A stretch of 64,000 nucleotides of DNA from a virus (taxonomy: Duplodnaviria > Caudoviricetes). A program made the translations under genes and the position numbers. The stretch covers positions 70,148 to 134,147 of IMG/VR virus record IMGVR_UViG_3300029967_000162, one strand, 5' to 3'. Shown piece by piece: positions 7,330-21,764 of the stretch (position 1 is its first letter; every line of letters begins with the position of its first letter). A model generated the notes under the pieces. That model saw only the letters and a list, made by a program, of their open reading frames with translations, searched no databases and was not told the origin of the DNA.

Positions 7330-9375
7330 ATGCCATTCAATGAGAATGAGAAGAGATACAACAAGCTAGACAAGCTTGCGGAAGGTGAGAAGCTGCAGAC
7401 TGTGTACTCAACTGAGAAAGTTGAGAAGATACTCAAAGACATGGGCAAAGGCTTGCAAGTTGACATGTCGCCTTTCTTCCATGGAGACACTAGATATAAA
7501 GATGCCGGATTGCTCTACAACTACACAGAGCATGAGATTGAAGAGCTGCAGAAGTGTGCTGATGACTGCTTGTACTATGTGAAGAACTATTGCAAGTTCT
7601 TGAATGACAAAGGCCGCACACTAGTCCAGCTGCGCGACTACCAAGAGCAATACATACAGATGCTTGGAGAGCAAGAGTATGATGAAGACATTGGAGAGTC
7701 GATACCTAAGAACAGGAGAATCATAACAATGATGGCTAGGCAATCATCCAAGACCACATCCACAGCAGCTTACATGTCATGGTACATGACATTCCATACA
7801 GACAAGAACTTGGCCATTGTGGCGAACAAAGGCAAGACTTCACAGGAGATTGTCTCTAAAGTCAAGGAAGTATTTGAAGGTCTTCCATTCTTCATGAAGC
7901 CTGGCATCATCCGTGCACAGATGCAGTCTATCACACTTGAGAACGGATGCTACTTGATGTGTGCGACTACTAACCCAACTTCCATCACTGGCCAGTCTAA
8001 CAATGTGCTCTACATAGACGAGGCAGCCCACATACCCCAGAACATCATGGATGCATTCTGGAAGTCAGTGTATCCCACTCTGTCTTCATTCAAGAACCAG
8101 CAGCTCATCATATCTTCTACACCTAAAGGCAAGCAGAACTTGTTCTATCGCATATGAGATGGCTCTATGAAAGGAGAGAACAACTTCAAGAACTTCAGAG
8201 TGGACTGGTGGCAGGTGCCTGGACATGATGATGCTTGGGCAGCAGAGCAGATCAAAGACTTTGGTGCTGACAACTTTGCACAAGAGTTTGGGCTCAGGTT
8301 TGAGTCAGACTCATCAAAGCTCATACGAGGCGAAGACTTCAAGCTCATGGACAGGTGGAAGTCCAAGTACAAGGTTAGGTCATTCGATGGCGTTGACAAA
8401 AGGATCTCTGACAAGATCTTCTGAGACCCAAGATTCACAATAGACACAAACAACTTGCAAGAGCTCCAGAGAAGGCACTTCTTGATAAGCATAGACACAG
8501 CAGAAGGCAAGCAAGCTGGTGTGAAAGGCAAGCAGGACTCTGACTACAACATTGGCAACATATTTGAGGTAGAGCTCATGTCGCCAGCTAGGGTGCGGAG
8601 GAACAAGAGAAGCACGATGAAGAAGCAAGTGGCATATGCGGACTGCATCAGGTACAGGCAGGTTGGCATATACATTGACAACGACAGAGATGAGGAAGAG
8701 CTTGCTGAAGCGATGAAGGTTGTGACCTTCAATGTGCTGAAGTGTGGTGTTGGTGATGTGGATAATGTGAGGCTCCTCATAGAGATGAACTTCAATGGCA
8801 AGAACTTCGTGAACAAGTTCAAGGCACATGACAACTTCTATGACAGTGTAATAATCAAGACATACCACAACAAGCCGGTGCCAGGGCAGCAGCACACAAG
8901 GCAGTTTGGCTATAAGACAGTAGGTGGCGAGAGAGGCAAGGGATACTGATGTGAGCTAGGTGCAAAGATGGTCGCAGATGGGCGAATCATCATAAGCCAC
9001 TATGATGATGACTGGAACAAGTCATCTATTGGAGAGCTTGAGAACTTTGGCAAGAACAACAGAGGAGTGTATGAAGGCTGCTGCGTGCATGATGACATAG
9101 CGATGACTGTGCTCTCTGTGAGCCACACACTAGATGACTCTCTTGAAGACTATACAGCTTGGCTTGAAGAGTATGTAGACAGGCTGCCGAAGGATGACAA
9201 GCATGCTGAAGATGTGAAGAAGCTGATGAAGATATACTCAGAGAGTGAGAGTGACTGGTCTGACAGCGACTTCAATGCAATGTATGGAATTGACAATGGA
9301 GCACACAACAACATGCCATACCAGAGCATGGTGCAGAATGTGCAGTGGGCTATTGCACAGAAGTGAAGGCACTAA
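7330..9375 (+). CDS. terL: terminase large subunit (T4 gp17-like); 4 in-frame TGA read as Trp
   Basis: LRDYQ, ARQSSKT, YIDEAAH, SSTPKG, SIDTAEG, HDDIAM; four ORF pieces join in one frame across TGA at 8155, 8422, 8947 and 9364. Confidence 0.92.
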
Positions 9376-10242: not shown

Positions 10243-11454
10243 TTAATTTGTGAGGGCAATCCTCACTGGCCTAGCCACAAGGCCTCTACTCCCTAGCAAT
10301 GCATCAGGAGATGCTTTTCAAAACTTTCTTGCAATGTTGAGCGAACCATTCACATCAGCATTCAAGAGTCCAGTTGGGTCTTTGAACAATCCACGCTTGA
10401 TCCTCTTCCCAGTTGGCTTGAAGAGTTCATCATCAACTTTCCAAGTTGGCAGATAGTCATTGTTGAAGAAACTGCACTTTGATGTATAGCTTTCTTCTTG
10501 CAACACCACATTAATTCCTAACAACTTAGCCTTATATTCAATCATCTTCACAAACTGTCAGAATGGTATCTGCACAAAATTCTGGTTTGACTTCTTTGAC
10601 ATGCTTGTGTCTTGTTTCCATCCTTTGTTGTAACCAACAATGATTGTTGTCAAGGAATGTTCAACGGCTTGATTCACAATCACTCTAGAAGCCTTGTGGA
10701 GATAGTCTTTGACTTTGTTGTTTCTTTTCAGGCTCAATGCTTTGACTTTGTTGCTTGATTTTTGCTTGTTTTGCTCTAACTTTGACTTATAATGTGCTAA
10801 CTGTTTGTTATAGAATTGGTTGATTGACTTCAAAGGTTTCCCATCAATAATGAATGCATTCACTCTATTAGAAGTACATGTTGCTAAGTTGTTTACCCCT
10901 AAGTCTATAGAAAGCCAATTCCCGTTCTGTTCTTTGAGTTCTTGTTCTTCTACTTCATAGACAACTTCTATGATAAGATAATCACCTTTTGGTATTACTC
11001 TAACTTGCTTTAAATCATTAGTATGCTTTGAATTAAATTCTAAATTTGTCTTTGGTAATCTGATAATACCAATTTTCAAAAAGTTCTTGCTTAAAGTCAT
11101 TGAATTATAAGTCAAGACAAATCTTCCTTTCTCTTTATCTAAATAACTAGGTATCCTAACTTTTTTTCCTGATTTCTTCTTGAGCGACTGAAAAAATGAC
11201 TTATAATTGTAATAGACTAACTTAAGTACTTCTTGTGATGTATTTGAAGGCAATGCAAAGTAGTTCTCATCATGTCTGTCATGCAAGAGTCTGTTGAGGC
11301 CATAGTAGTCAAGAAAAGTCTTGTCTTTGAAGAACTGCTGCCTGACTTCATAGAGAGCAGCATTATAGAGGTTCTTAGACAAGAAGCACAAATGATCAAG
11401 CTCTTTGTAGAGCTTGTCTGCCTTCTTGACTATATGTTGCTCAACTAATTTCAT
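10243..11454 (-). CDS. tnpB: TnpB (IS607-associated); 2 TGA
   Basis: SIDLGVNN, EESYTSKCS, NADVNGSLNI; continuous through TGA at 10558 and 10318. Confidence 0.88.
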
Positions 11455-11476
11455 TATTTAATAATCTCAATCATAT

Positions 11477-12079
11477 TTATTTATCTTCAAGCTTCAAATC
11501 TTTTTCAATGAGCTGCAACTTCTCTTTTCTTCTTGATGAGTACATCTTCATAGAGAAACAATGAATCAAAGAGATGATTTCTTCAAAGATTTCTTTCTCA
11601 ATCTCTCTAGGATTGTCTATCTCATTGAGCACTACTATGTCTACTCCATACTTTTCAAACAAAGACTTGAAAGTCTGAAATGAGATTCTTGAAAGTCTGT
11701 CTTTGTAAGTTATGAAGATCTTGTTGATCTTGTATGATGTGACATCATCTAGAAGCTCTTGGAACCCGTCTCTATCAAGTGACATCCCTGAAGCAATGTC
11801 TTTGTAAATCTTTGAGACCTTTACACCATTCTTGAAGCAGAACTGCTCTAATGTAGAGATTTGATTCTCAAGGTCTTTCTTCTGGCAGGTTGAAGAAACT
11901 CTAGCATAGATTACATTGATTTGCTCTACATTCTTGTTAAGTAGTTTATAGACATCATTCTTGTTGTAGTCATATTGGCCGTTTGGTAAGGTCTTTGTTG
12001 ATATTCAGCCTCTAGAGACATAATGACAAAGAGTAGGTCTTGTAATTTTTAACAAAGACAATACTTCTTTAGCTTTCAT
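11477..12079 (-). CDS. tnpA: IS607 serine-recombinase transposase; 1 TGA
   Basis: MKAKEVLSLLKITRPTL...RG(W)I HTH, then YARVSS and DRLSR. Confidence 0.88.
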
Positions 12080-12201: not shown

Positions 12202-12285
12202 GCCAATATGGGACAGTGGTCAACTCCACCTGCCTTGTAAGCAGGCTCTGTATAAGATGCGCAAGTTCGAATCTTGCTATTGGCT
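12202..12285 (+). tRNA. tRNA-Thr(TGT) with an unusually long (15 nt) variable region
   Basis: Acceptor gccaata/tattggc; anticodon arm cctgc-cttgtaa-gcagg; T arm gcaag-ttcgaat-cttgc. Confidence 0.8.
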
Positions 12286-12305
12286 CAAGATAAATTATCT
12301 TGACA

Positions 12306-12378
12306 TGTGGGATAGAGCAGTTGGCAGCTCATCAGGCTCATAACCTGAAGGTCGCAGGTTCAAGTCCTGCTCCCGCAA
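12306..12378 (+). tRNA. tRNA-Met(CAT), initiator-like
   Basis: Acceptor tgtggga/tcccgca; tcagg-ctcataa-cctga; gcagg-ttcaagt-cctgc. Confidence 0.9.
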
Positions 12379-12383
12379 CCGAA

Positions 12384-12730
12384 GTGCATGATGGGCACCG
12401 GCGCCCTACAGATGCACAACTCTCAAGGCATAGCCGGCGATGGGGCTACATGCATCCATTGCAACCTGTGGAGAGTGGCGCAAGATACAAGGGAAACTTG
12501 CAACAGAAGAGTGCCAGAATTGGCATTAGCAGATGCCTAGGATCATGTGGTGACACATGATGAAAAGCTTCAAATCTCTTCTAAATGGTGTACCTGTGAT
12601 GGAGTTCACCTCATCAGAGATGATCACATGCACAGCTTGCTAAATACATGATAGGTTCGCTGCCTTTGTACACCACTGTTTGCATCAAGAAGACAACTGG
12701 CCCTAACAAGTTGGTTGTCTTTTGGGGCAC
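12384..12730 (+). ncRNA. candidate structured non-coding RNA downstream of the tRNAs
   Basis: Many nested hairpins (gtgcat/atgcac, atcatgtg-gtga-cacatgat, gtgcca/tggcat, ggtgtac/gtacacc, agacaac/gttgtct); no convincing ORF. Confidence 0.4.
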
Positions 12731-12777
12731 CATGCAACATAAATAAAAAGACGAATAGAAGACTTGGAGATGGAGAC

Positions 12778-13749
12778 ATGAGGAGAACTATTTGGCATAT
12801 CTTTATAGTTGCTGCACTTGCACTTCTAGCAAGCTGCCAACGTAGGCCTATTGAGCAGACAATGTCACTAGTGCATATCACAGTTGTAGAGCAAGACTCT
12901 ATCATGAATGTGACATATGGCTTGCCAACTAAAGCTGTAGATCCACCTGAGATCACAGCAGATGGCTTCCTCCTCTACTGCTACAAGGATGATGAGAATG
13001 GCAGGCAGACCGGGCCTTATGTGATGGCAGTGCGAGGCACGGACATGAGCTATGATGGATGGCTCAGCCTTGAGAGTGGTGAGTGGACTGTCATGGCAGC
13101 CACATTTGACGGCACTGACATACAGACATCAATCACAGACATATTTGAAGATGGCTATGCATGAGTGTCACACCAGGTGAACGGCACTCTGCAACAGCCA
13201 GACCACTTCTTTGTTGGATCAGAGAGGCAGATAGAAATTGTGCCACAAGTTGCAGCTGACTTTGACACTGTGCAAGTGGCAATCAATGCTGAGACCATCA
13301 CGAAGACTTGGTATGTGCAAGTTGGCGTGGCAGAAGAGAGTGATGAGATGCCAAGTGCACTCTCTGCTTGTGTGACAGGCCTTGCAGACAATGTGAAGCT
13401 CATCACAAAGAGCATAGATGGGCAAGATCAGTCACAGCTGAAGCTTGAGCTTGTGGATGATCCATTCAGCTCAGGCAAGAAAGTGTATGCTGGGGTGTTC
13501 TCAACATTCGGGTTCAACAGCAAAGCACCAGAGATTGTGCTATCGCCTCAAACAAAGTCAATCACAAAGACATTGAGCTTGAGCGATGCTCTTGTGACTG
13601 AAGATGCGACTGAGAGGCAATGGATCATCTTGGATGATGCAGTGGGGCCAGACGACTTCAAGAGAGACACCACCCAGGCTAGCTCAGGCAGCATGTGGCA
13701 GCCATATGTCGAAGACTGGGAACATGAGACAATAAAATTTTACATATAA
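12778..13749 (+). CDS. Bacteroidota-type lipoprotein (Mfa2/DUF5119-like pilus accessory protein); 1 TGA
   Basis: Lipobox LLASC; C-terminal WQPYVEDWEHETIKFYI typical of fimbrillin-like proteins; continuous across TGA 13162. Confidence 0.6.
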
Positions 13750-13754
13750 TAAAC

Positions 13755-14765
13755 ATGAAAATGAAGTTCATTCTAGGTGCTGCTGTTGCAGCATTCATGG
13801 TGGCAGTTGGATGCACTAAAGAGAATGTCCAGCTTGCTCCTGCACAGGAGATAACAATGTCTCCTTACTACACTACAAGTGTTGCTACAAAGGCAGATGA
13901 TAACGAGCATTCGTTTGCAACTACTGAGACCTTTGTCACTAAAGTGTACTATGATGACAGCAAAGATGAAAATGGTGTCTATGTGCCAGAGTCTGTAGTG
14001 AAGTACACAGATCAATGGAGAGCTTATAATAATGAAGATGTTATGATGCACTACTATTGGCCAGTTGATGGAAAGAAGCTGACTTTCTACTCTTACTACC
14101 CAGCAAGCTTGAAGTCTCAAGAGAATGCTCCTAAAGCTTGGATTACTAGCGTTGGTGTCAATGCAGAGTTCACTTCTCGTCCAGAAGTAGACTTCATGGT
14201 TGCTGACACGCAATGTGGCCAGACTGCTAATAGTTCTAATGACAACTACACAGGTGTTCCAACGATCTTCCGGCATGCTCTTGCTAAGATTGAGACTGTG
14301 CATTTGAAGTTGCAGGGTGCGCCATATAATAGTTTGTCATACAAAGTCATGTATGTGAAGTTGACAGGCTTGAAGAATGGCACTTATACACAATCTGGTG
14401 AATCACATTGGAAATTGTCTGAAAATGATGAATATTCTGAAAATGATGGATATAGTGAATTTCTTTATAATAATAAAGATGGCTTAGAGATCAACAAAAA
14501 GGATGGCGGTAGCTTCAATGTTAATAAGTTCTTCATACCTGGAAACAACTTCAACATCACAGTTGGCTTCGAAGTTACTGGCTCTAACAACATAGTGCAA
14601 AAATTTGAGAAGACAGCAAGTGTTGAAAACCTTAGTATGCAAGAGAACTACAACTACACCTTGAACATCACTAGAGGAAGTGATAACGACAAGCCGGTGA
14701 ATGAGATCCTCTGGGCACCTTCTGTGAAAGATTGGATTGATGATACAATCAGTGTCACACTTTAG
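13755..14765 (+). CDS. fimbrillin-family (Mfa-like) lipoprotein
   Basis: Lipobox VAVGC, ATKA processing-like site, YYWP, TFYSYYP, DFMVA, FRHALAKI, C-terminal VKDW. Confidence 0.8.
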   Translation: MKMKFILGAAVAAFMVAVGCTKENVQLAPAQEITMSPYYTTSVATKADDNEHSFATTETFVTKVYYDDSKDENGVYVPESVVKYTDQWRAYNNEDVMMHYYWPVDGKKLTFYSYYPASLKSQENAPKAWITSVGVNAEFTSRPEVDFMVADTQCGQTANSSNDNYTGVPTIFRHALAKIETVHLKLQGAPYNSLSYKVMYVKLTGLKNGTYTQSGESHWKLSENDEYSENDGYSEFLYNNKDGLEINKKDGGSFNVNKFFIPGNNFNITVGFEVTGSNNIVQKFEKTASVENLSMQENYNYTLNITRGSDNDKPVNEILWAPSVKDWIDDTISVTL

Positions 14766-14769
14766 ATTC

Positions 14770-16269
14770 ATGTCTCTCAAGTGGGTCGCCGCACTAGCAG
14801 TGACCCTTGTTGTCTTTGGGTGCTCTAAAGATGATGGCACTGCATATGATGCTCCCACACAACCATCTACATTGCCATTGCTCAGCTCATGGCAGGCCTC
14901 AACAAAAGCTGACAACGCACAAGATGAGCAAGCTTCTGCAGACACAGTTGCCCTTGATCACTCAAAGGCCTTCTACATGACCGCTCTGACAACTGATGAT
15001 AGGAAACTCTGGTCATCATCAGATGCACAAGTCAGCTACGCAGAAGGCATTGGGTGGCATTCAGGATGATATTGGCCAGCAGAGCTAGACAGAGAGCTTG
15101 AGATTTGGACATATCCAACAAAGATGTGGACAGCTATAGACACAACTGCAAAGACAGTCTCTGTCGCTCTAGATGGCAAAGATGACTTGATCTTCACAGC
15201 CACCCCATCTTATAGCAAAGGTCCAAACCCAGTGAATGTGAAGTTCATCCACTCTCTTGCAGGTGTGACTGTAAGCAGCAACATCAAGAACCCAAACACA
15301 AAGCAGAAGATGGCATGGGCAGAGCAGATCACTGCAAGCTACATGAACACTTCTGGCATCTGGGACTTCACCAACCAAAGATGGACTTCTCTGGATGGAA
15401 AGCAAGCAGAGGATGCAAAAGTAGGCTCTGTCTTCTATGTCACTCCTGGGCAGACTATTAGCTTGCACCTTGAGAAGCTGCATGTCATCAACAACAATGA
15501 TGAAGATGCTGCACAGATCCTTGACTATGACCTCAAGACACCTGTAGAAGTCAAAGAAGGTATGATGCATGAAGTTGTCATCAACATGAGTGAAGCTGAA
15601 GAGTGGGTTGACTTAGGCCTGCCTTCTGGCACGCTCTGGGGTACAAAGAACATCGGTGCATGCAAGCCAGAGATGTATGGCAACTTCTACAGGTGGGCAA
15701 ACTTGAAACAGCGAATGAAAGGAGACTCAAACACTTCAGACCCAGAAGCAAGCCAACGGCAGAGCAATGGAGAGATGCAAGACACCTATGACATTGCATA
15801 CCAGATTCTAAAAGGTGAAGGAGAGACCCCAACTTACACTCAAGTTGAAGAGCTCAAGAAGTGGTGCAAGTGGGAGTGGATGGAAGAAGGCAACACTGAG
15901 TTCAGCGGAGTGCCAGGATTCAAGATCTATGCTTCTGGCTACTATAACACAGACAGCAAGAGCACTTTCATCTTCATTCCTGCAAATGGCTACTATGATG
16001 ACAATGGCTGGATGATAGACTACAACACTTATCAATACAAAGGCAGCACTTCAGAGCAAGGAGTGAAGTCTACAAGGAAGGGATCATACTGGACTTCTAC
16101 CTACAACAATGGCACTCCACACACTCTCAACTTTGGTGCAGGATGGGAGACAATGCCAGACAATGAATACCAGACTGGGCAGACCCCACATGCTCTTGGC
16201 ATCAGGCCGGTGAAAGTACAGAAGATCTCTGGCCGTAACCCTAACCCAACCAGGAGCAACCAATGGTAG
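14770..16269 (+). CDS. fimbrillin lipoprotein with a C-terminal VDLGLPSG (DUF1566/Fib_succ-like) domain, putative tip adhesin; 1 TGA
   Basis: Lipobox VVFGC, STKA, G(W)YWP, FIHSLA, EWVDLGLPSGTLW, FIPANG, YWTST, GIRPV. Confidence 0.75.
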
Positions 16270-16452
16270 CTCTCTAACTGCTTAGTATCCACCAGGACAT
16301 CTTTTCCTGGCATAAACATGTCCCAACAAGAAAAGGTTTCTCATGGAAAATTGTCCTAAGAAACCTTTTTAATTGTCTCATATTCATTTGCTTAAACCGA
16401 TTAAAATCAGAGTTGCCTCTATATAAATCATGTAAACAAACACAGAGACAAC

Positions 16453-16848
16453 ATGAGACACACATTCACTTCTATCATCGCTGCGATCGCAATTGCATTC
16501 TCTACCATCAGCTGCTCTGCTGAGAGATATGACATCGAACCAATGCCTGCAGAAGAAAGCCCTGCTTATGTGATGTACAAAGCAGTGTCTGCAGACTCTA
16601 CCGACATCATGGAGATCTCAACTCTCACTTCTGTAGGTGTAGCAGACTTCAAGAGCACTGCCGAGTTTGAAGCAATCATAGGACCAGTGGATGCAAACAC
16701 ATTTGAGCCTTCAATCGAAGCAGTCTCTCAGAAAGATGCGGAGATCAAGATCTCTATCTACATCAGTGAGGACCTTGAGAGCTGGAAGCATGTCGGTGGC
16801 ACGACAGGAGAAGCATATGCTGAAGTAGTGACAAAGATCTCTGAATAG
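16453..16848 (+). CDS. small lipoprotein
   Basis: Signal peptide ending in STISC. Confidence 0.65.
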   Translation: MRHTFTSIIAAIAIAFSTISCSAERYDIEPMPAEESPAYVMYKAVSADSTDIMEISTLTSVGVADFKSTAEFEAIIGPVDANTFEPSIEAVSQKDAEIKISIYISEDLESWKHVGGTTGEAYAEVVTKISE

Positions 16849-16894: not shown

Positions 16895-16969
16895 TGAGGT
16901 GTCGTATAAAGCTCAATACACAAGATTTTGGTTCTTGCAATCAGGGTTGGATTCCCTGCACCTCAACCA
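16895..16969 (+). tRNA. tRNA-Gln(TTG)
   Basis: Acceptor tgaggtg/cacctca + A + CCA; caaga-ttttggt-tcttg; atypical T loop ttggatt. Confidence 0.8.
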
Positions 16970-17036: not shown

Positions 17037-17267
17037 ATGTGCTTCAAGAAGAAAGACAAGACATATGTTGAAGTTGTAGGAGAGCATTGGCTAGATGAGA
17101 CAAAGATGCTCTCATACAAAGAGTTCATTGCATGCAAGCACCCTTCTGAGATAAAGCTTTGCAAGCTCTATGAAAGTTTTGACGAGCTTGAGAAGACAAA
17201 GCAAGACCACAAGCATAGAATCTTTGATTTGATTCAGAAGTTCATTGATAAAGATTACGGGATGTAG
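17037..17267 (+). CDS. small hypothetical protein; 3' end overlaps tRNA-Pro
   Basis: MCFKKKDKTY..., ORF with typical codon usage. Confidence 0.45.
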   Translation: MCFKKKDKTYVEVVGEHWLDETKMLSYKEFIACKHPSEIKLCKLYESFDELEKTKQDHKHRIFDLIQKFIDKDYGM

Positions 17268-17408
17268 TTCAGTTGGCCAGAACGCTGGTTTTGGGATACA
17301 GAATGATTTACTGTGACAAATCAACATTGTAGTCAAGACGTGAGGTTGAAGATCGAATCTTCCTACAATGTCAACCAGAGGTCGCGCGTTCGAGTCGCGC
17401 CATCCCGA
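17258..17408 (+). tRNA. tRNA-Pro(TGG) with a 77-nt insertion (17296-17372) at position 37/38
   Basis: Acceptor cgggatg/catcccg; anticodon stem ctggt/accag separated by tttggg + insert + a; T arm gcgcg-ttcgagt-cgcgc. Confidence 0.85.
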
Positions 17409-17757: not shown

Positions 17758-20319
17758 CTATTCAGTGTTCTTTGGTATGTAGTTCGTATGGAACACTATG
17801 TCCTCAAGCATCTTCCACATTGTCGTGAGAGAAGCATCTATCCTGTCAGTCAAGCCCTCAAGTGAGTTGATTGATATGTTCATCACTTTTATAGAGCTGT
17901 CAGTTGCATCAGCAAAGTCAAACAGAGTGCTCAAGTTCTTTGAGTGCGTGGCAACCTTTGTGCTCAAGTCTTTGAATGAGTCTGAGCCCATGATTGCATT
18001 CTCAAGGTTCACGACAAAGTTCTGTATGTAAGCGATGATGTAAGGAATCAGCTTCTCATAGTTGATGTTAGCAGTCTTGATGTCTGACCCATAGAGCACG
18101 CTTGTGTCTTGGCTCTCTACCAAGTATGTCAAGTCAACGCCATTTCATGAGCTGTCACCACCCCATGAAGAGCTGTTCAACGCTGGGCTGTCTGGGTCGA
18201 CATAGAACTCAAGGATCCTGTCAGAAGAGTTCTGCACAGTGCCATCTTCAGCGATGTACTTGTACTCAACATTCTTGGTTGACATCAGTATGTTGATGCC
18301 CGCATAGTAGAGTGGTGTCTGGCTTGCCTCAGTAGTCTGCCCACTTGGGTCTGACACACTCACCATGTGCTCTTGCACGTCAAATATGGTTGAGAGGATT
18401 CTGCCAGCTTCTTCAGTCAAGGCACCTTCTTCATTCAAGAGAGTAGAGAATGCAGAAGCATCATCATAGTACTTGGTGACCTTGACATATGAGTCTATCT
18501 TGTTGAGAGTCGACACATCAAGATGGTCAATGTGCACCCCACTTGAGTCAAAGATTGCCACTGTCTTGTACTCTACATCTTTGTATGCATATGCTTCAGT
18601 GTCATAAGTGTCAACTGCATCTGGCACCTGTATCAGCAAGACAGAGTCATCTAGTGTCTTGCCTGGCCTGATTGTAGAAGCATTCAGCACAGCTGTCGTG
18701 AGCACTGCTGCACGATCACCTGCCACATAAGATGCAAGAGCTGTGCTCAAGTCCTTCACCTGTGTAGCATAAGTGTCATATGCATTCACTACCTGTGCAT
18801 AAGAGCTCTGGATGTTCTTTGTCGTGACGACATTGGTGTTCATCGCATCCACTGCTTGGCTCAAGCTGCTCAAGATGCCAGCGAAGTCAGAAGTGAGGAG
18901 TGAAGTCGTAGTCGTGTTGTCATTGACTTCAGAGTCGGTGTCGTCATAGACAGAGTTCGTCTTCACGTTCACACGGAATGCATAGCCAGTGCCAAACCCA
19001 TTTGCATTGCTCATCTTCTTGGTGAGTGGTGGGATGCAGAATGAAGTCTGCTCTCCAGTCTCATCTCCAGACATGTCTTCAGGGGCATCCAAGAAGAGCA
19101 CGCCAAACAAGTTGGTAGCTACAGGCACCTTAGTCGAGTTGGTCGTGTCATAGACAGAGTAGTAGAGCAAGATGGCATTGAAGTCGAACTGGTCATCAGG
19201 AGCGAATGCATCTGGGGCCTTCACGTTCACGTCATCATAGCTGTTCACAATGTGCGTCACACCAGGCTCAAGCTTGTCCCAGATTGCAGCGATGTCGTTC
19301 ACATCCTTCACAATCTCTACCCCATCAAGGTTAGATCTCCTGAAAGTGAATGTGCTGTCACCCTTGTATGTGATGTCATAGTTGATTGGGTCACTCTTGT
19401 CCCACTTCTGAGTTATGTATGCTCCACCAGTCTTCACATAGCTGAGCATGCTGCTCCACCAGAAAGCGTCATCGTCACCAGACCCATCGCTTGCACTCCA
19501 TGAAGGAGTGTACTCGTCAAACGTGTCGGCGTAGTCAGACCATGGCACGTTGACTGTGTATGTGTTCACGACATTCTCTGCTTCAGACTCACGGCCTTGC
19601 AGAGTAGAAGGGTTGTCATAGATGTATGCCTTGCCAAGCACATAGTTAGTCTCACCATCGTCATCTTTCACCCTGAAGTAGACTTTGCCACCACCATAAG
19701 AAGTCGGCACAGCGACATAAGTCTCATTGAACATGCCAAACTCTGTAGACCGAGAGTTCCCAGCATCTATGGCCCCAAAGCACCTCACGACTTTCTGGTA
19801 GCCTGTGCGGTTGCCTACAGCCTCTATGCTGGTAGAGACATCCTGATCCTCCTCAAAGATCTCTCCACACCTTGTCGTCTTGATGTTGTCATCCTTCCAC
19901 CTGATGGCACCAGTCTCCTTGAGTCACTTCCAGAAGACACGCTCAGACACAGTCTGCAAGTCTTGGTAGTTGTACTCATCTTGGTTCATCAAGAGGGTCT
20001 CAAAGTTCATCGCATAGTTCTGGAGAGATGCAGCGATGTGCCATGATGGAGAGTAGTCCAAGCCACCTTGCCCAGCTACATATGCAAACTCACCTGGTAT
20101 GAGAGTTGGGTTGAAGAAGTTGACTGCCAAGTTCTTCTTGGTTGCAAGCTCTGTGTTGCTCTCTGGTATGTTGAGGAGAGCATAGTGTGAGAGGCACACT
20201 GTGTTGGCTCTTGCATTGAGGTTGAGCCCTATGTCTTCAGAAGCCGATGGGAACACATAGAGGGTCCCACCTTGGCTCCTTGGTTGGTTGATGATTGGTG
20301 TCTTGTTCTGACTAGCCAT
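17758..20319 (-). CDS. large virion structural protein (853 aa); 2 TGA
   Basis: Three ORF pieces in one frame across TGA at 19924 (VFWK-W-LKETG) and 18145. Confidence 0.75.
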
Positions 20320-20414: not shown

Positions 20415-21764
20415 ATGCCTACAAAAGTCATAGACAAGAAGCTATTTGAAGAGCGCAATATTGACAACAACTTCCCAAGAGAGGTGATACTCGGCCTCTT
20501 GAGGATCCTCAACCAGCAGATATCATATGAGCAGATTTGGGAAGACACTTCTGTTGGCAGAGAGAGGATCAATGTGCCATTCTTGTTTGACTTTGGTGAG
20601 GCATACAACTCCGAGAAGTTCATCCAAGACAACTACATCTTCTTTGGAAGCGACTGCACTACTGCTGGGCTCACCAAGATGCCTGGCAACTTTGACTTCT
20701 ACCCTAGAGGAGTAGTGTCCCTCAAGTCGATTGCCATAGACTCTGGATCTATCACAAACAGGTATGTCATGGGCAGGTTCCAAAAGAAGATAGGGCCTCA
20801 GGTCAAGTCATATGTCTCTTGGCTCTACTCTCTGCCACTCAACATGTCATTCAGCCTTGAAGTTCGTGCAGACACTTTCAACACAGCACTCAAGATAGAC
20901 TCTGCATTCAGAGAGTTCTTCTACAAGAACAAGACATACTACATCAACTACCATGGGTCTAGAGTGCCATGCCGATGTGGCTTTGCAGAGCAGCTTGCAC
21001 TTGACAAAGGCTCAACATACACAATGGGCACTTATGACTCTGACAGATACTTCAAGCTCACTATGGACTTGAGTGTAGAGACATACCAGCCAGTGTATGA
21101 CCCGACTGCAGAGATGCCAGCTGATGCATCTGCAAGATGGGGCCTCTCTCTGAACGTCAATCCAGGCACTCAGCATGAGAAGAAGATCTGGTTCACAAAT
21201 GACTTGACAAACACCCTCATCACAGCTGGTGAAGACACAGTGATAGAGTGAGACTGAGACTTCAACCGGTCAGACATGCTCCATGTGCAGCTCTCTTACA
21301 TAGATGCTTCATCTGGTGATGAAGTAGAGATCGCTGCAGTGCAGAACCACAACTTCTATGACTGGGCAGTGCCTGAAGAGCTCTCAGCAATGGAGAAGCT
21401 AGAAGTGGTCGTGCCAAACACAGATGAGCTCAGCGTCTATGAGCAACCTCAGCTCAGGATTGTCCCAGACTTGTCCACGATGGTCGTGAGGCCATCAGAT
21501 GTAGTTGTGCTCAACAAAGGATACTTTGTCACAAAGCAGAGCAAAGTCGATGGTTGGATTGACTACACTAGAGACAAAGATGGAGGATTAGAAGAGATTC
21601 CGGTCAAGTTGAACTTGGCAAATGGGCAGATTGACTTGAGCAATCCAATAGAGTTTGAGCCATTTGTGTACTTGAACAAAGTCAAGAAGAAAGAGATCAC
21701 AGTCAAGCTTGTCGATGTCACGAATGGAAAGGAATACACGATGAGCCCTGTCTATGTCGTGTAG
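20415..21764 (+). CDS. tail completion / sheath stabilizer (gp15-like) protein with a C-terminal extension; 2 TGA
   Basis: INVPFLF, YPRG, LPLNMSFSLEV; joins the 21276 ORF via E-W-D-W. Confidence 0.6.

Follow-up and report, generated by a model that had tools for sequence, protein, structure and literature searches.

We describe a cassette of four lipoprotein genes in a 64,000-nt stretch of DNA from a virus (Duplodnaviria; Caudoviricetes), which is the right-hand 64 kb (positions 70,148 to 134,147) of the 134,147-bp linear IMG/VR virus record IMGVR_UViG_3300029967_000162 and is referred to below as the window. The assignment of the first three products to the type V pilin superfamily, encoded in the order anchor-like, stalk-like and tip-like, is supported by homology, profile and structural comparisons. 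The explanation that we favour, with a probability of roughly 60%, is that an accessory cassette of Bacteroidales origin, holding a minimal parts list of a type V pilus (anchor, stalk and tip), is carried by a Lak-like megaphage in which TGA is recoded. The virus probably re-dresses the surface of the infected cell, and we infer that the products build a pilus and serve to adhere, to aggregate cells or to mask receptors. Support for the structural reading is good in the case of genes 1 and 2 and reasonable in that of gene 3. What is new is that divergent members of known pilin families, one of them a pilin-lectin fusion, are phage-carried and locked to the code of the phage; we found no paper describing pilin genes in megaphages, and a literature search for DUF5119 gave no relevant result.

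An earlier note on this DNA had listed an Mfa2/DUF5119-like protein, a fimbrillin, a fimbrillin with a C-terminal VDLGLPSG lectin-like domain and a small lipoprotein, encoded one after another at 12778-16848, between tRNA genes and behind a short sequence box, with TGA read as Trp in two of the genes. All of these elements were found at those positions. A signal peptide with a lipobox cysteine can be read from each of the four translations (LLASC20, AVGC20, VFGC18 and TISC21 in gene order), and this cysteine is invariant in alignments A1, A6 and A8; the prediction that all four products are lipoproteins is supported. When the products of the first three genes were compared with Mfa1, Mfa2 and FimA by profile and Foldseek searches, as the same note had proposed, gene 1 fell among the type V pilins by its structural model, gene 2 by its Pfam family and gene 3 by hhalign. 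Searches of the PDB with single sequences gave no match.

Gene 1 has no match in Pfam (E<=1), NCBIfam or PHROGs. An exhaustive phmmer search returned 62 full-length non-self relatives at 22-32% identity; all 51 of the homologues that were aligned carry Pfam DUF5119, and one homologue cluster, from Candidatus Cryptobacteroides/Bacteroidales, is named 'DUF5119 domain-containing protein'. The DUF5119 alignments A1 and A2 proved too variable for use in pattern scans. The motifs that gene 1 has in common with the DUF5119 alignment are the lipobox followed by RRP, then NVT, PDH, TFG and a C-terminal P-x-V-x-D-W tail. The Pfam DUF5119 model itself (PF17145; gathering score 27 bits) does not reach gene 1 and has no match at E<=10 in the record, and we classify the product, on its sequence, as a divergent DUF5119 relative outside the curated model. 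The gene 1 family profile matches PDB 5CAG, a 'putative adhesin' of Bacteroides ovatus, at 1.4e-28.

The AlphaFold2 model of gene 1 (pLDDT 86.6, pTM 0.80) has two tandem beta-sandwich (transthyretin-like) domains; its last ~23 residues show no secondary structure and the lowest pLDDT (50-65). Foldseek and VIA-align place this model in the type V pilin superfamily. The VIA-align Z-scores are 16.6 for 5cag, 14.8 for 3gf8, 14.3 for 3pay and 4qdg and 13.6 for Mfa2 (5nfi), each over 231-244 aligned residues, compared with 9-11.6 for the stalk and tip pilins FimA, Mfa1, Mfa3 and Mfa4. The structures 3pay, 3gf8 and 4qdg have been grouped beside Mfa2 as putative anchors, and Mfa2 has no protease site and remains lipid-linked (Hall et al. 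2018, PMC5789003). Gene 1, like Mfa2, has no Arg/Lys site at the pilin cleavage position. The Pfam family of FimB/Mfa2 anchors (Mfa2, PF08842) gave no match at E<=10 in the record and a weak match in one of 52 relatives, and we regard gene 1 as anchor-like by the shape of its model and not as a member of PF08842. The Mfa2/DUF5119-like label is borne out both by the homologues and by the closeness of the model to 5cag and the Mfa2-type anchors.

Gene 2 was correctly recognised as a fimbrillin, with 54.3 bits against Pfam Mfa_like_1 (PF13149; 55.1 bits in the scan of the record) for a cut-off of 27. It aligns end to end with 26 bacterial fimbrillins, and its K45 falls at their conserved T-R/K-A, where characterised pilins are cut during maturation. 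The C-terminus, V-K-D-W, fits the consensus I-x-F-x-x-x-V-x-x-W with a terminal strand. A profile that includes gene 2 matches the PDB pilins 4QB7 (7e-31), 4K4K, 3UFI and 3T2L, and it is through the family, by these profile matches and by Pfam, that the two-beta-sandwich fold is assigned to gene 2. We classify the product as a predicted Mfa_like_1 fimbrillin of stalk type.

Gene 3 is composed of a pilin-like body and a C-terminal lectin-like domain. The body scores 21.2 bits with PF13149 (E 1.4e-5 for the record), below the cut-off of 27; hhalign against a profile built only from bacteria (A7, 26 fimbrillins) gives a probability of 96.8% and an E-value of 3.1e-10 over residues 5-205. A word-seeded search with the body found no homologue except its own fragment, and in 401 Bacteroidales genomes its only matches are a few Mfa_like_1 lipoproteins that adjoin DUF5119 genes. 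The family-invariant residues D139 and H161 are present, and K46 stands at the T-R/K-A cleavage-site position. The AlphaFold2 model of the body is weak (pLDDT 62.5); its top ten Foldseek matches are all type V pilins (TM 0.25-0.35), but these add little and depend in part on the alignment behind the model. In the mixed full-length alignments A3 and A4, fimbrillins were placed over the lectin domain, and these two alignments were left out of the folding.

The C-terminal domain of gene 3 has 645 homologues, many with Pfam Lcl_C; among bacterial fragments of the domain, Lcl_C was matched in 11 of 20 and Fib_succ_major in 2 of 20. The gene 3 copy gives no hit to Lcl_C (PF07603, formerly DUF1566; gathering 34.9 bits) and is below all cut-offs, and by its homologues it is classed as a divergent Lcl_C relative. 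We take the Lcl_C/DUF1566 family to have a C-type-lectin-like fold and assume the same for the gene 3 head; a PDB profile search with this domain found no solved structure. The domain is present in 24 of the 401 sampled Bacteroidales genomes. The earlier description of gene 3 as a fimbrillin with a lectin-like domain stands for the domain, which is Lcl_C-related, and for the body it stands by profile alignment and not by Pfam membership.

The junction between the two parts is informative. In alignment A5 the lectin-like domain starts right after the W of EEW, the equivalent of V-x-D-W, so that the V-x-D-W and terminal strand present on genes 1 and 2 are replaced on gene 3 by the lectin-like domain. 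A groove-bearing body without a C-terminal strand is the layout expected of a tip subunit, and it is reasonably supported that the gene 3 body is pilin-like, Mfa_like_1-related and of tip type.

Several side observations concern the lectin-like domain. Lak-A1 has a stand-alone 252-aa open reading frame (ORF) with a VDLGLPSG domain (L003:4896-5654), adjoining radical-SAM, FolD and topoisomerase genes, and the domain, with no lipoprotein leader, is found in phages of the Lak-A and Lak-C groups and in a related 263-kb megaphage contig (L070:3-674). One Bacteroidales genome (locus L014, G293:C1:120161-120601) has a lectin-like-domain ORF with one in-frame TGA, which could be a recoded prophage, a phage contig binned with the genome, or a pseudogene. 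A diversity-generating retroelement (DGR) acting on the lectin head was considered and rejected, as neither a repeat of 15600-16300 elsewhere nor RVT_1 was found in the 134 kb, a search that covers ~24% of the genome.

The order of the cassette has counterparts in Bacteroidales loci with DUF3575, DUF5119 and Mfa_like_1 genes. DUF5119 adjoins Mfa_like_1 in 18 of 34 bacterial loci (a few of which overlap). In Bacteroidales genomes this order usually comes after a DUF3575 (OmpA-like beta-barrel) gene. As in the phage, DUF5119 is directly followed by one or two Mfa_like_1 lipoproteins, the lipobox and the RRP, NVT, PDH and V-x-D-W motifs are common to both, and an Lcl_C protein lies in the neighbourhood. 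A locus of a Bacteroidaceae metagenome-assembled genome from roe-deer colon (JAFTUK010000001, L004) encodes, in this order, Mfa_like_1, an 819-aa DUF4906 and Lcl_C protein, DUF3575, DUF5119, Mfa_like_1, Mfa_like_1 and a protein without an assigned family. The position of the 819-aa protein (L004:3998-6457), in which DUF4906 is combined with an Lcl_C-like stretch, between the fimbrillin genes and the DUF3575-DUF5119 pair links lectin-like heads to bacterial fimbrial loci. A fusion of pilin body and lectin was absent from 71 pilin and 35 lectin ORFs of the bacterial loci, a small sample in which many ORFs are cut at locus ends. The phage cassette differs from these loci in several respects: i) no DUF3575 head gene was found in its 134-kb record; ii) its upstream neighbours are tRNAs and an IS607-type element; iii) identity is 22-32% only; and iv) it is carried by a phage and needs TGA to be read as Trp.

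Some phages encode lipoprotein 'morons', among them T5 Llp and the Cor proteins, which reach the outer membrane of the infected cell through the lipoprotein pathway of the host and alter it. These are single small receptor-blocking lipoproteins, in contrast to the multi-gene pilus-subunit architecture of the cassette. The cassette products could nevertheless act in a comparable way, as pilin-fold lipoproteins that do not polymerise and serve singly in receptor masking, in superinfection exclusion, or as a debris decoy that protects progeny virions. Such a role, which we consider possible though rather unlikely, would suit four separate lipoproteins of which the fourth is of no pilin kind, the failure to find DUF3575 in the 134-kb record and the accessory nature of the cassette within its lineage; some pilin-like DGR targets of Bacteroides are periplasmic and not in pili (10.1101/2024.11.15.621889). 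It does not account for the complete anchor, stalk and tip order, for the conserved Lys that genes 2 and 3, but not gene 1, have at the cleavage position (as predicted from the alignments), or for the V-x-D-W tails, which genes 1 and 2 keep and which are lacking in just the gene that is tip-like, gene 3. It is hard to see a use for these features other than assembly by strand exchange.

That the carrier is a phage is supported by the terminase, a Lak-conserved gene and the origin of the record as an IMG/VR virus record. The large terminase subunit (T4-type) is encoded 3.4 kb upstream of the cassette, and downstream lies the gene of an 853-aa protein that is conserved in Lak phages and ~42% identical to the proteins of Prevotella Lak megaphages. 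The CheckV completeness of the record is 24%, from which a whole genome of roughly half a megabase is estimated. Reading TGA as Trp is the phage's own code: ORFs of at least 300 aa cover 66% of the record with code 4, compared with 40% with code 11 and 49% with code 15. In the whole record 59 of 95 long ORFs contain TGA, all of them ending with TAA or TAG, and TGA provides 176 of the 714 Trp codons (24.6%). Codon 132 of the 853-aa protein is a TGA that aligns with a conserved Trp in the Lak-A1 homologue. A tRNA with the UCA anticodon was not found among the six tRNAs of the 134-kb record.

Full-length products of genes 1 and 3 require TGA to be read as Trp; under table 11 the two genes split exactly at the TGA codons for W129 and W100, with no frameshift. 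Homology continues in the same frame across both codons, in the DUF5119 alignment on both sides of W129 and likewise across the gene 3 TGA. The earlier note had regarded an assembly chimera as fatal to its reading; a chimera of a standard-code bacterium is ruled out for this region, since these two genes are complete only under the phage code. We consider it extremely improbable that the cassette is an artefact, either an assembly chimera with host DNA or a set of decaying pseudogenes in which TGA is a true stop. The record is metagenome-assembled and the two genes do split in two under table 11; on the other side stand the full-length in-frame homology, the fact that TGA-joined ORFs are the rule in this record and that one TGA matches a conserved Trp, the phage genes and phage tRNAs that flank the cassette on either side within one 134-kb contig, and the recording of the split products on two contigs. 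The view of the cassette as phage-encoded is upheld by the flanking phage genes and the phage-wide code.

In its core genes this phage is ~37-44% identical to the Lak megaphages of Prevotella (MK250015-MK250029), with which it also has in common many tRNAs, some of them intron-bearing, an altered genetic code and a homologue of the gene 3 lectin-like domain, which in the Lak phages stands alone. For the published Lak genomes the recoded stop codon is TAG (code 15), in contrast to TGA=Trp in this phage, and Lak-A1, unlike this phage, has neither DUF5119 nor Mfa_like_1. Neither family was found in Lak-A1 (complete) or in five related megaphage records of IMG/VR, of which two are 100% complete, and the absence of the cassette from these six records marks it as a lineage-specific accessory acquisition. 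A tblastn search with genes 1 and 2 found nothing in 50,697 GenBank phage records, and pattern scans of IMG/VR with the gene 2 product (P0002) and with the 853-aa protein were also negative.

Other phage sequences may contain similar proteins. In the GenBank phage collection, bacterial DUF5119 and Mfa_like_1 queries found only two contigs with a DUF5119-like ORF, both unannotated 'Bacteriophage sp.' entries from human feces (MT835733.1:4855-5754 and MT836511.1:5357-6190), whose ORFs are 24% identical to a bacterial member; these contigs may hold phage-borne pilus-type genes or be misfiled host DNA. Among the viral predicted structures of BFVD, just one, A0A8S5VJP7 (499 aa), matches the gene 1 model over most of its length (TMq 0.47, E 1.6e-4), and it could be another phage-encoded pilin-like protein.

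The most probable source of the cassette, within the favoured explanation, is a Bacteroidales bacterium; the only named sources of the closest DUF5119 relatives, 'Candidatus Cryptobacteroides sp. / Bacteroidales bacterium', do not point to one donor genus. TGA accounts for 2 of its 36 Trp codons (5.6%), significantly below the phage-wide 24.6% (Fisher p=0.0046), which agrees with a cassette that was taken from a standard-code host and has drifted only to a limited extent since, and agrees equally with a different expression class. Exhaustive searches of ~15 billion proteins found no homologue above ~30% identity, and therefore the transfer is not fresh. These observations divide the earlier view of the operon as domesticated and not a fresh host fragment: the two TGA codons and the identities of at most ~30% agree with it, whereas the low TGA use and the lack of the cassette in six relatives do not.

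The same low TGA use and the absence from the six related records would be expected of a neutral passenger that came recently from a Bacteroidales host into a tRNA/insertion hot spot, possibly with the IS607-type element whose tnpA and tnpB genes lie directly upstream. We judge this improbable, because all four reading frames and lipoboxes are intact, the transfer is not fresh by the measure of identity, two TGG-to-TGA changes were tolerated without other damage, and a phage-wide motif, CATAAATA, lies upstream of gene 1.

A location in the virion is another conceivable role, with the pilin-like beta-sandwich bodies and the lectin head forming fibres or decoration that bind host or mucus glycans. 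The lectin-like domains without a lipoprotein leader in Lak-A, Lak-C and the related megaphage, and the position of the cassette between the terminase and large structural genes, could be read in this way, as could the BFVD matches of the gene 1 model, which are mostly Ig-like parts of tail fibres and baseplates, although weak (TM <0.3). Yet all four products have lipoprotein signal peptides, which would lead them away from the cytoplasmic assembly of a tailed phage, the closest relatives are lipoproteins of bacterial pilus loci and not virion proteins, and there is no PHROG match, all of which makes this role very unlikely.

The features of the cassette and its surroundings are collected in Table 1. 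Genes 1-3 are tightly packed (gaps of 5 nt and 4 nt), whereas gene 4 follows after 183 nt, which contain a terminator-like hairpin; the predicted RNA fold of this interval (16270-16452) has an energy of -35.7 kcal/mol and a z of -2.9. A terminator consensus scan does not call the hairpin because its stem is AT-rich. A hairpin with a U-run in a gap of this size implies that gene 4 may be a separate transcription unit, and the single four-gene cluster originally proposed holds for genes 1-3 and is doubtful for gene 4.

Table 1. Features of the lipoprotein cassette and its surroundings (window coordinates)
Feature	Position	Strand	Description
Cassette	12778-16848	+	four lipoprotein genes, read with TGA=W
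Gene 1 (P0001)	12778-13749	+	323 aa, DUF5119-family anchor-like lipoprotein (predicted)
Gene 2 (P0002)	13755-14765	+	336 aa, Mfa_like_1 fimbrillin lipoprotein, stalk-like (predicted)
Gene 3 (P0003)	14770-16269	+	499 aa, pilin-like body and Lcl_C/DUF1566-like domain
Gene 4 (P0004)	16453-16848	+	131 aa, small orphan lipoprotein (predicted)
Gene 3, N-terminal pilin-like body	14770-15630	+	residues 1 to ~287
Gene 3, C-terminal Lcl_C/DUF1566-like domain	15631-16269	+	VDLGLPSG...RPV, ~210 residues, putative glycan-binding
In-frame TGA of gene 1 (W129)	13162-13164	+	code-11 ORF splits here
In-frame TGA of gene 3 (W100)	15067-15069	+	code-11 ORF splits here
Terminator-like hairpin	16330-16370	+	12-bp stem then U-run, between genes 3 and 4
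CATAAATA motif	12738-12745	+	33 nt upstream of gene 1 ATG
CATAAATA copies in the window	2911, 6850, 12738, 20344(-), 20381, 35941(-), 48324		
Terminase large subunit	7330-9375		T4-type
IS607-type element	10243-12079	-	serine-recombinase tnpA and tnpB (OrfB_IS605, Cas12f-like TNB domains)
tRNA-Thr(UGU)	12202-12286	+	upstream boundary; ARAGORN, Rfam tRNA 55.8 bits
tRNA-Met(CAU)	12306-12380	+	upstream boundary; ARAGORN, Rfam tRNA 67.4 bits
tRNA-Gln(UUG)	16895-16969	+	downstream boundary; ARAGORN
tRNA-Pro(UGG), intron-bearing	17258-17408	+	downstream boundary; Rfam 53.4 bits
853-aa protein gene	17758-20319	-	conserved in Lak phages

Gene 4 encodes the small lipoprotein foreseen by the earlier note, with its lipobox cysteine at position 21 and without a family: it has no Pfam, NCBIfam or PHROG match and no likeness to the pilin profile. 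Its nearest protein-atlas clusters are hypothetical Bacteroidota proteins of 125-133 aa (features 0.93, TM 0.65-0.67). It is possibly a transcription unit of its own.

The cassette is bounded by tRNA genes on both sides. Upstream, the tRNA-Thr/tRNA-Met pair directly follows the IS607-type tnpA/tnpB genes, both of which contain TGA codons; downstream, the tRNA-Pro gene has a 77-nt insert after the anticodon and is detected by ARAGORN only with introns allowed. The ~350 nt between tRNA-Met and CATAAATA (12381-12737) contain no ORF and no Rfam match at E<=1. The CATAAATA motif, the box seen upstream of the cluster, is enriched in the window, with seven copies compared with 1.57 expected, a number reached by none of 100 shuffles. 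For five of the seven copies a start codon follows at a distance of 22-33 nt (the start at 20415 is putative), among them the start of the Lak-conserved 853-aa gene, and the five include the divergent pair around 20319/20415. We regard the motif as a candidate promoter or leader element of the phage.

Two further systems allow comparison with the cassette. The Mfa (Mfa1-5) and Fim (FimA-E) type V pili of Porphyromonas gingivalis are likewise built from lipoprotein precursors with the two-beta-sandwich pilin fold. In P. gingivalis the anchor (Mfa2/FimB) is uncleaved, and the stalk and tip pilins have a basic cleavage site after the first strand (PMC5789003). The cassette would follow the same division, with predicted basic sites in genes 2 and 3 and none in gene 1. 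The gene 1 model also aligns to Mfa2, with a Z-score of 13.6. The differences are that gene 1 does not belong to Pfam Mfa2 at the sequence level and that the cassette has a single tip-like protein and lacks a von Willebrand protein of the Mfa5 type. In the mfa cluster the stalk gene precedes the anchor gene, unlike in the cassette, and we know of no gingipain-type protease in the presumed Prevotella-like host.

The second system comprises the tip adhesins BfrT, BthT and BunT of Bacteroides type V pili, which are diversified by DGRs, have C-terminal C-type-lectin folds and sit at the ends of anchor-stalk operons (10.1101/2024.11.15.621889). Gene 3 resembles them in the combination of a pilin-like body with a C-terminal domain of presumed lectin fold and ligand binding, in its place after anchor-like and stalk-like genes and in carriage on mobile DNA. 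It differs in that neither a template repeat nor a reverse transcriptase is found in the phage's 134 kb, the carrier is a megaphage of lytic type and not an integrative and conjugative element (ICE), and the head is of an Lcl_C/DUF1566-like sequence family.

A mechanism for the favoured explanation can be outlined as follows. The genes would be transcribed together with other phage genes that carry CATAAATA, in the TGA-decoding phase of infection; as the products of genes 1 and 3 cannot be finished before TGA is decoded, the full set would be made in the infected cell under the translation regime of the phage. The precursors would use the Sec, Lgt, LspA and Lol machinery of the host and a lipoprotein surface-export route; SKDD (gene 3) and TKE (gene 2) after the cysteine resemble the Bacteroidota lipoprotein export signal, and gene 1 has RRP instead. 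A host protease would cut gene 2 after K45 and gene 3 after K46 and thereby remove the first strand. Into the grooves left open in gene 3 and in each added copy of gene 2 the V-x-D-W tail strand of gene 2 would insert, followed by that of gene 1, whose uncleaved, lipid-linked product would cap the base. The resulting short fibre, or surface complex, would display the lectin-like head on the infected cell, on vesicles and on debris, where it may bind glycan of neighbouring bacteria, of mucus, or of the cell's own surface and debris. The most likely use is glycan binding, either for aggregating infected cells with hosts or mucus or for masking or decoying the phage receptor.

Several points weigh against this explanation. 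Gene 1 and both domains of gene 3 are below the curated Pfam cut-offs, confidence in the model of the gene 3 body is low, and DUF3575 (PF12099) has no match at E<=1 in the 134-kb record, which covers about a quarter of the genome. The predicted cleavage site of genes 2 and 3 has Lys and not the more usual Arg. To our knowledge, a processing protease is known only for P. gingivalis (the gingipains). The lineage can do without the cassette, since none of six related records was found to contain it; the low TGA use could mean a recent, perhaps not yet adaptive, passenger beside the IS607-type element; and gene 4, given the hairpin, may be unrelated.

We also put forward, tentatively, a more specific proposal, which is possible but doubtful at present: that the virus builds a working adhesive pilus on its host. 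The anchor, the stalk and the lectin-tipped pilin would be made in the TGA-decoding phase of infection, would be assembled by strand exchange without DUF3575 and would tether infected cells to fresh hosts or mucosal glycans, promoting the spread of a slow giant phage, and the head of the tip would be kin to the lectin-like domains of Lak phages.

In the Bacteroidota of gut and mouth, the principal adhesive fibres are type V pili, whose role in gut species, as well as the need for partners such as DUF3575, is poorly known. If the favoured explanation is true, nature would offer in this minimal phage-carried set, locked to the phage code and made up of anchor, stalk and lectin tip, a compact test case both for the parts that suffice for pilus assembly and for the remodelling of the host surface by giant phages.

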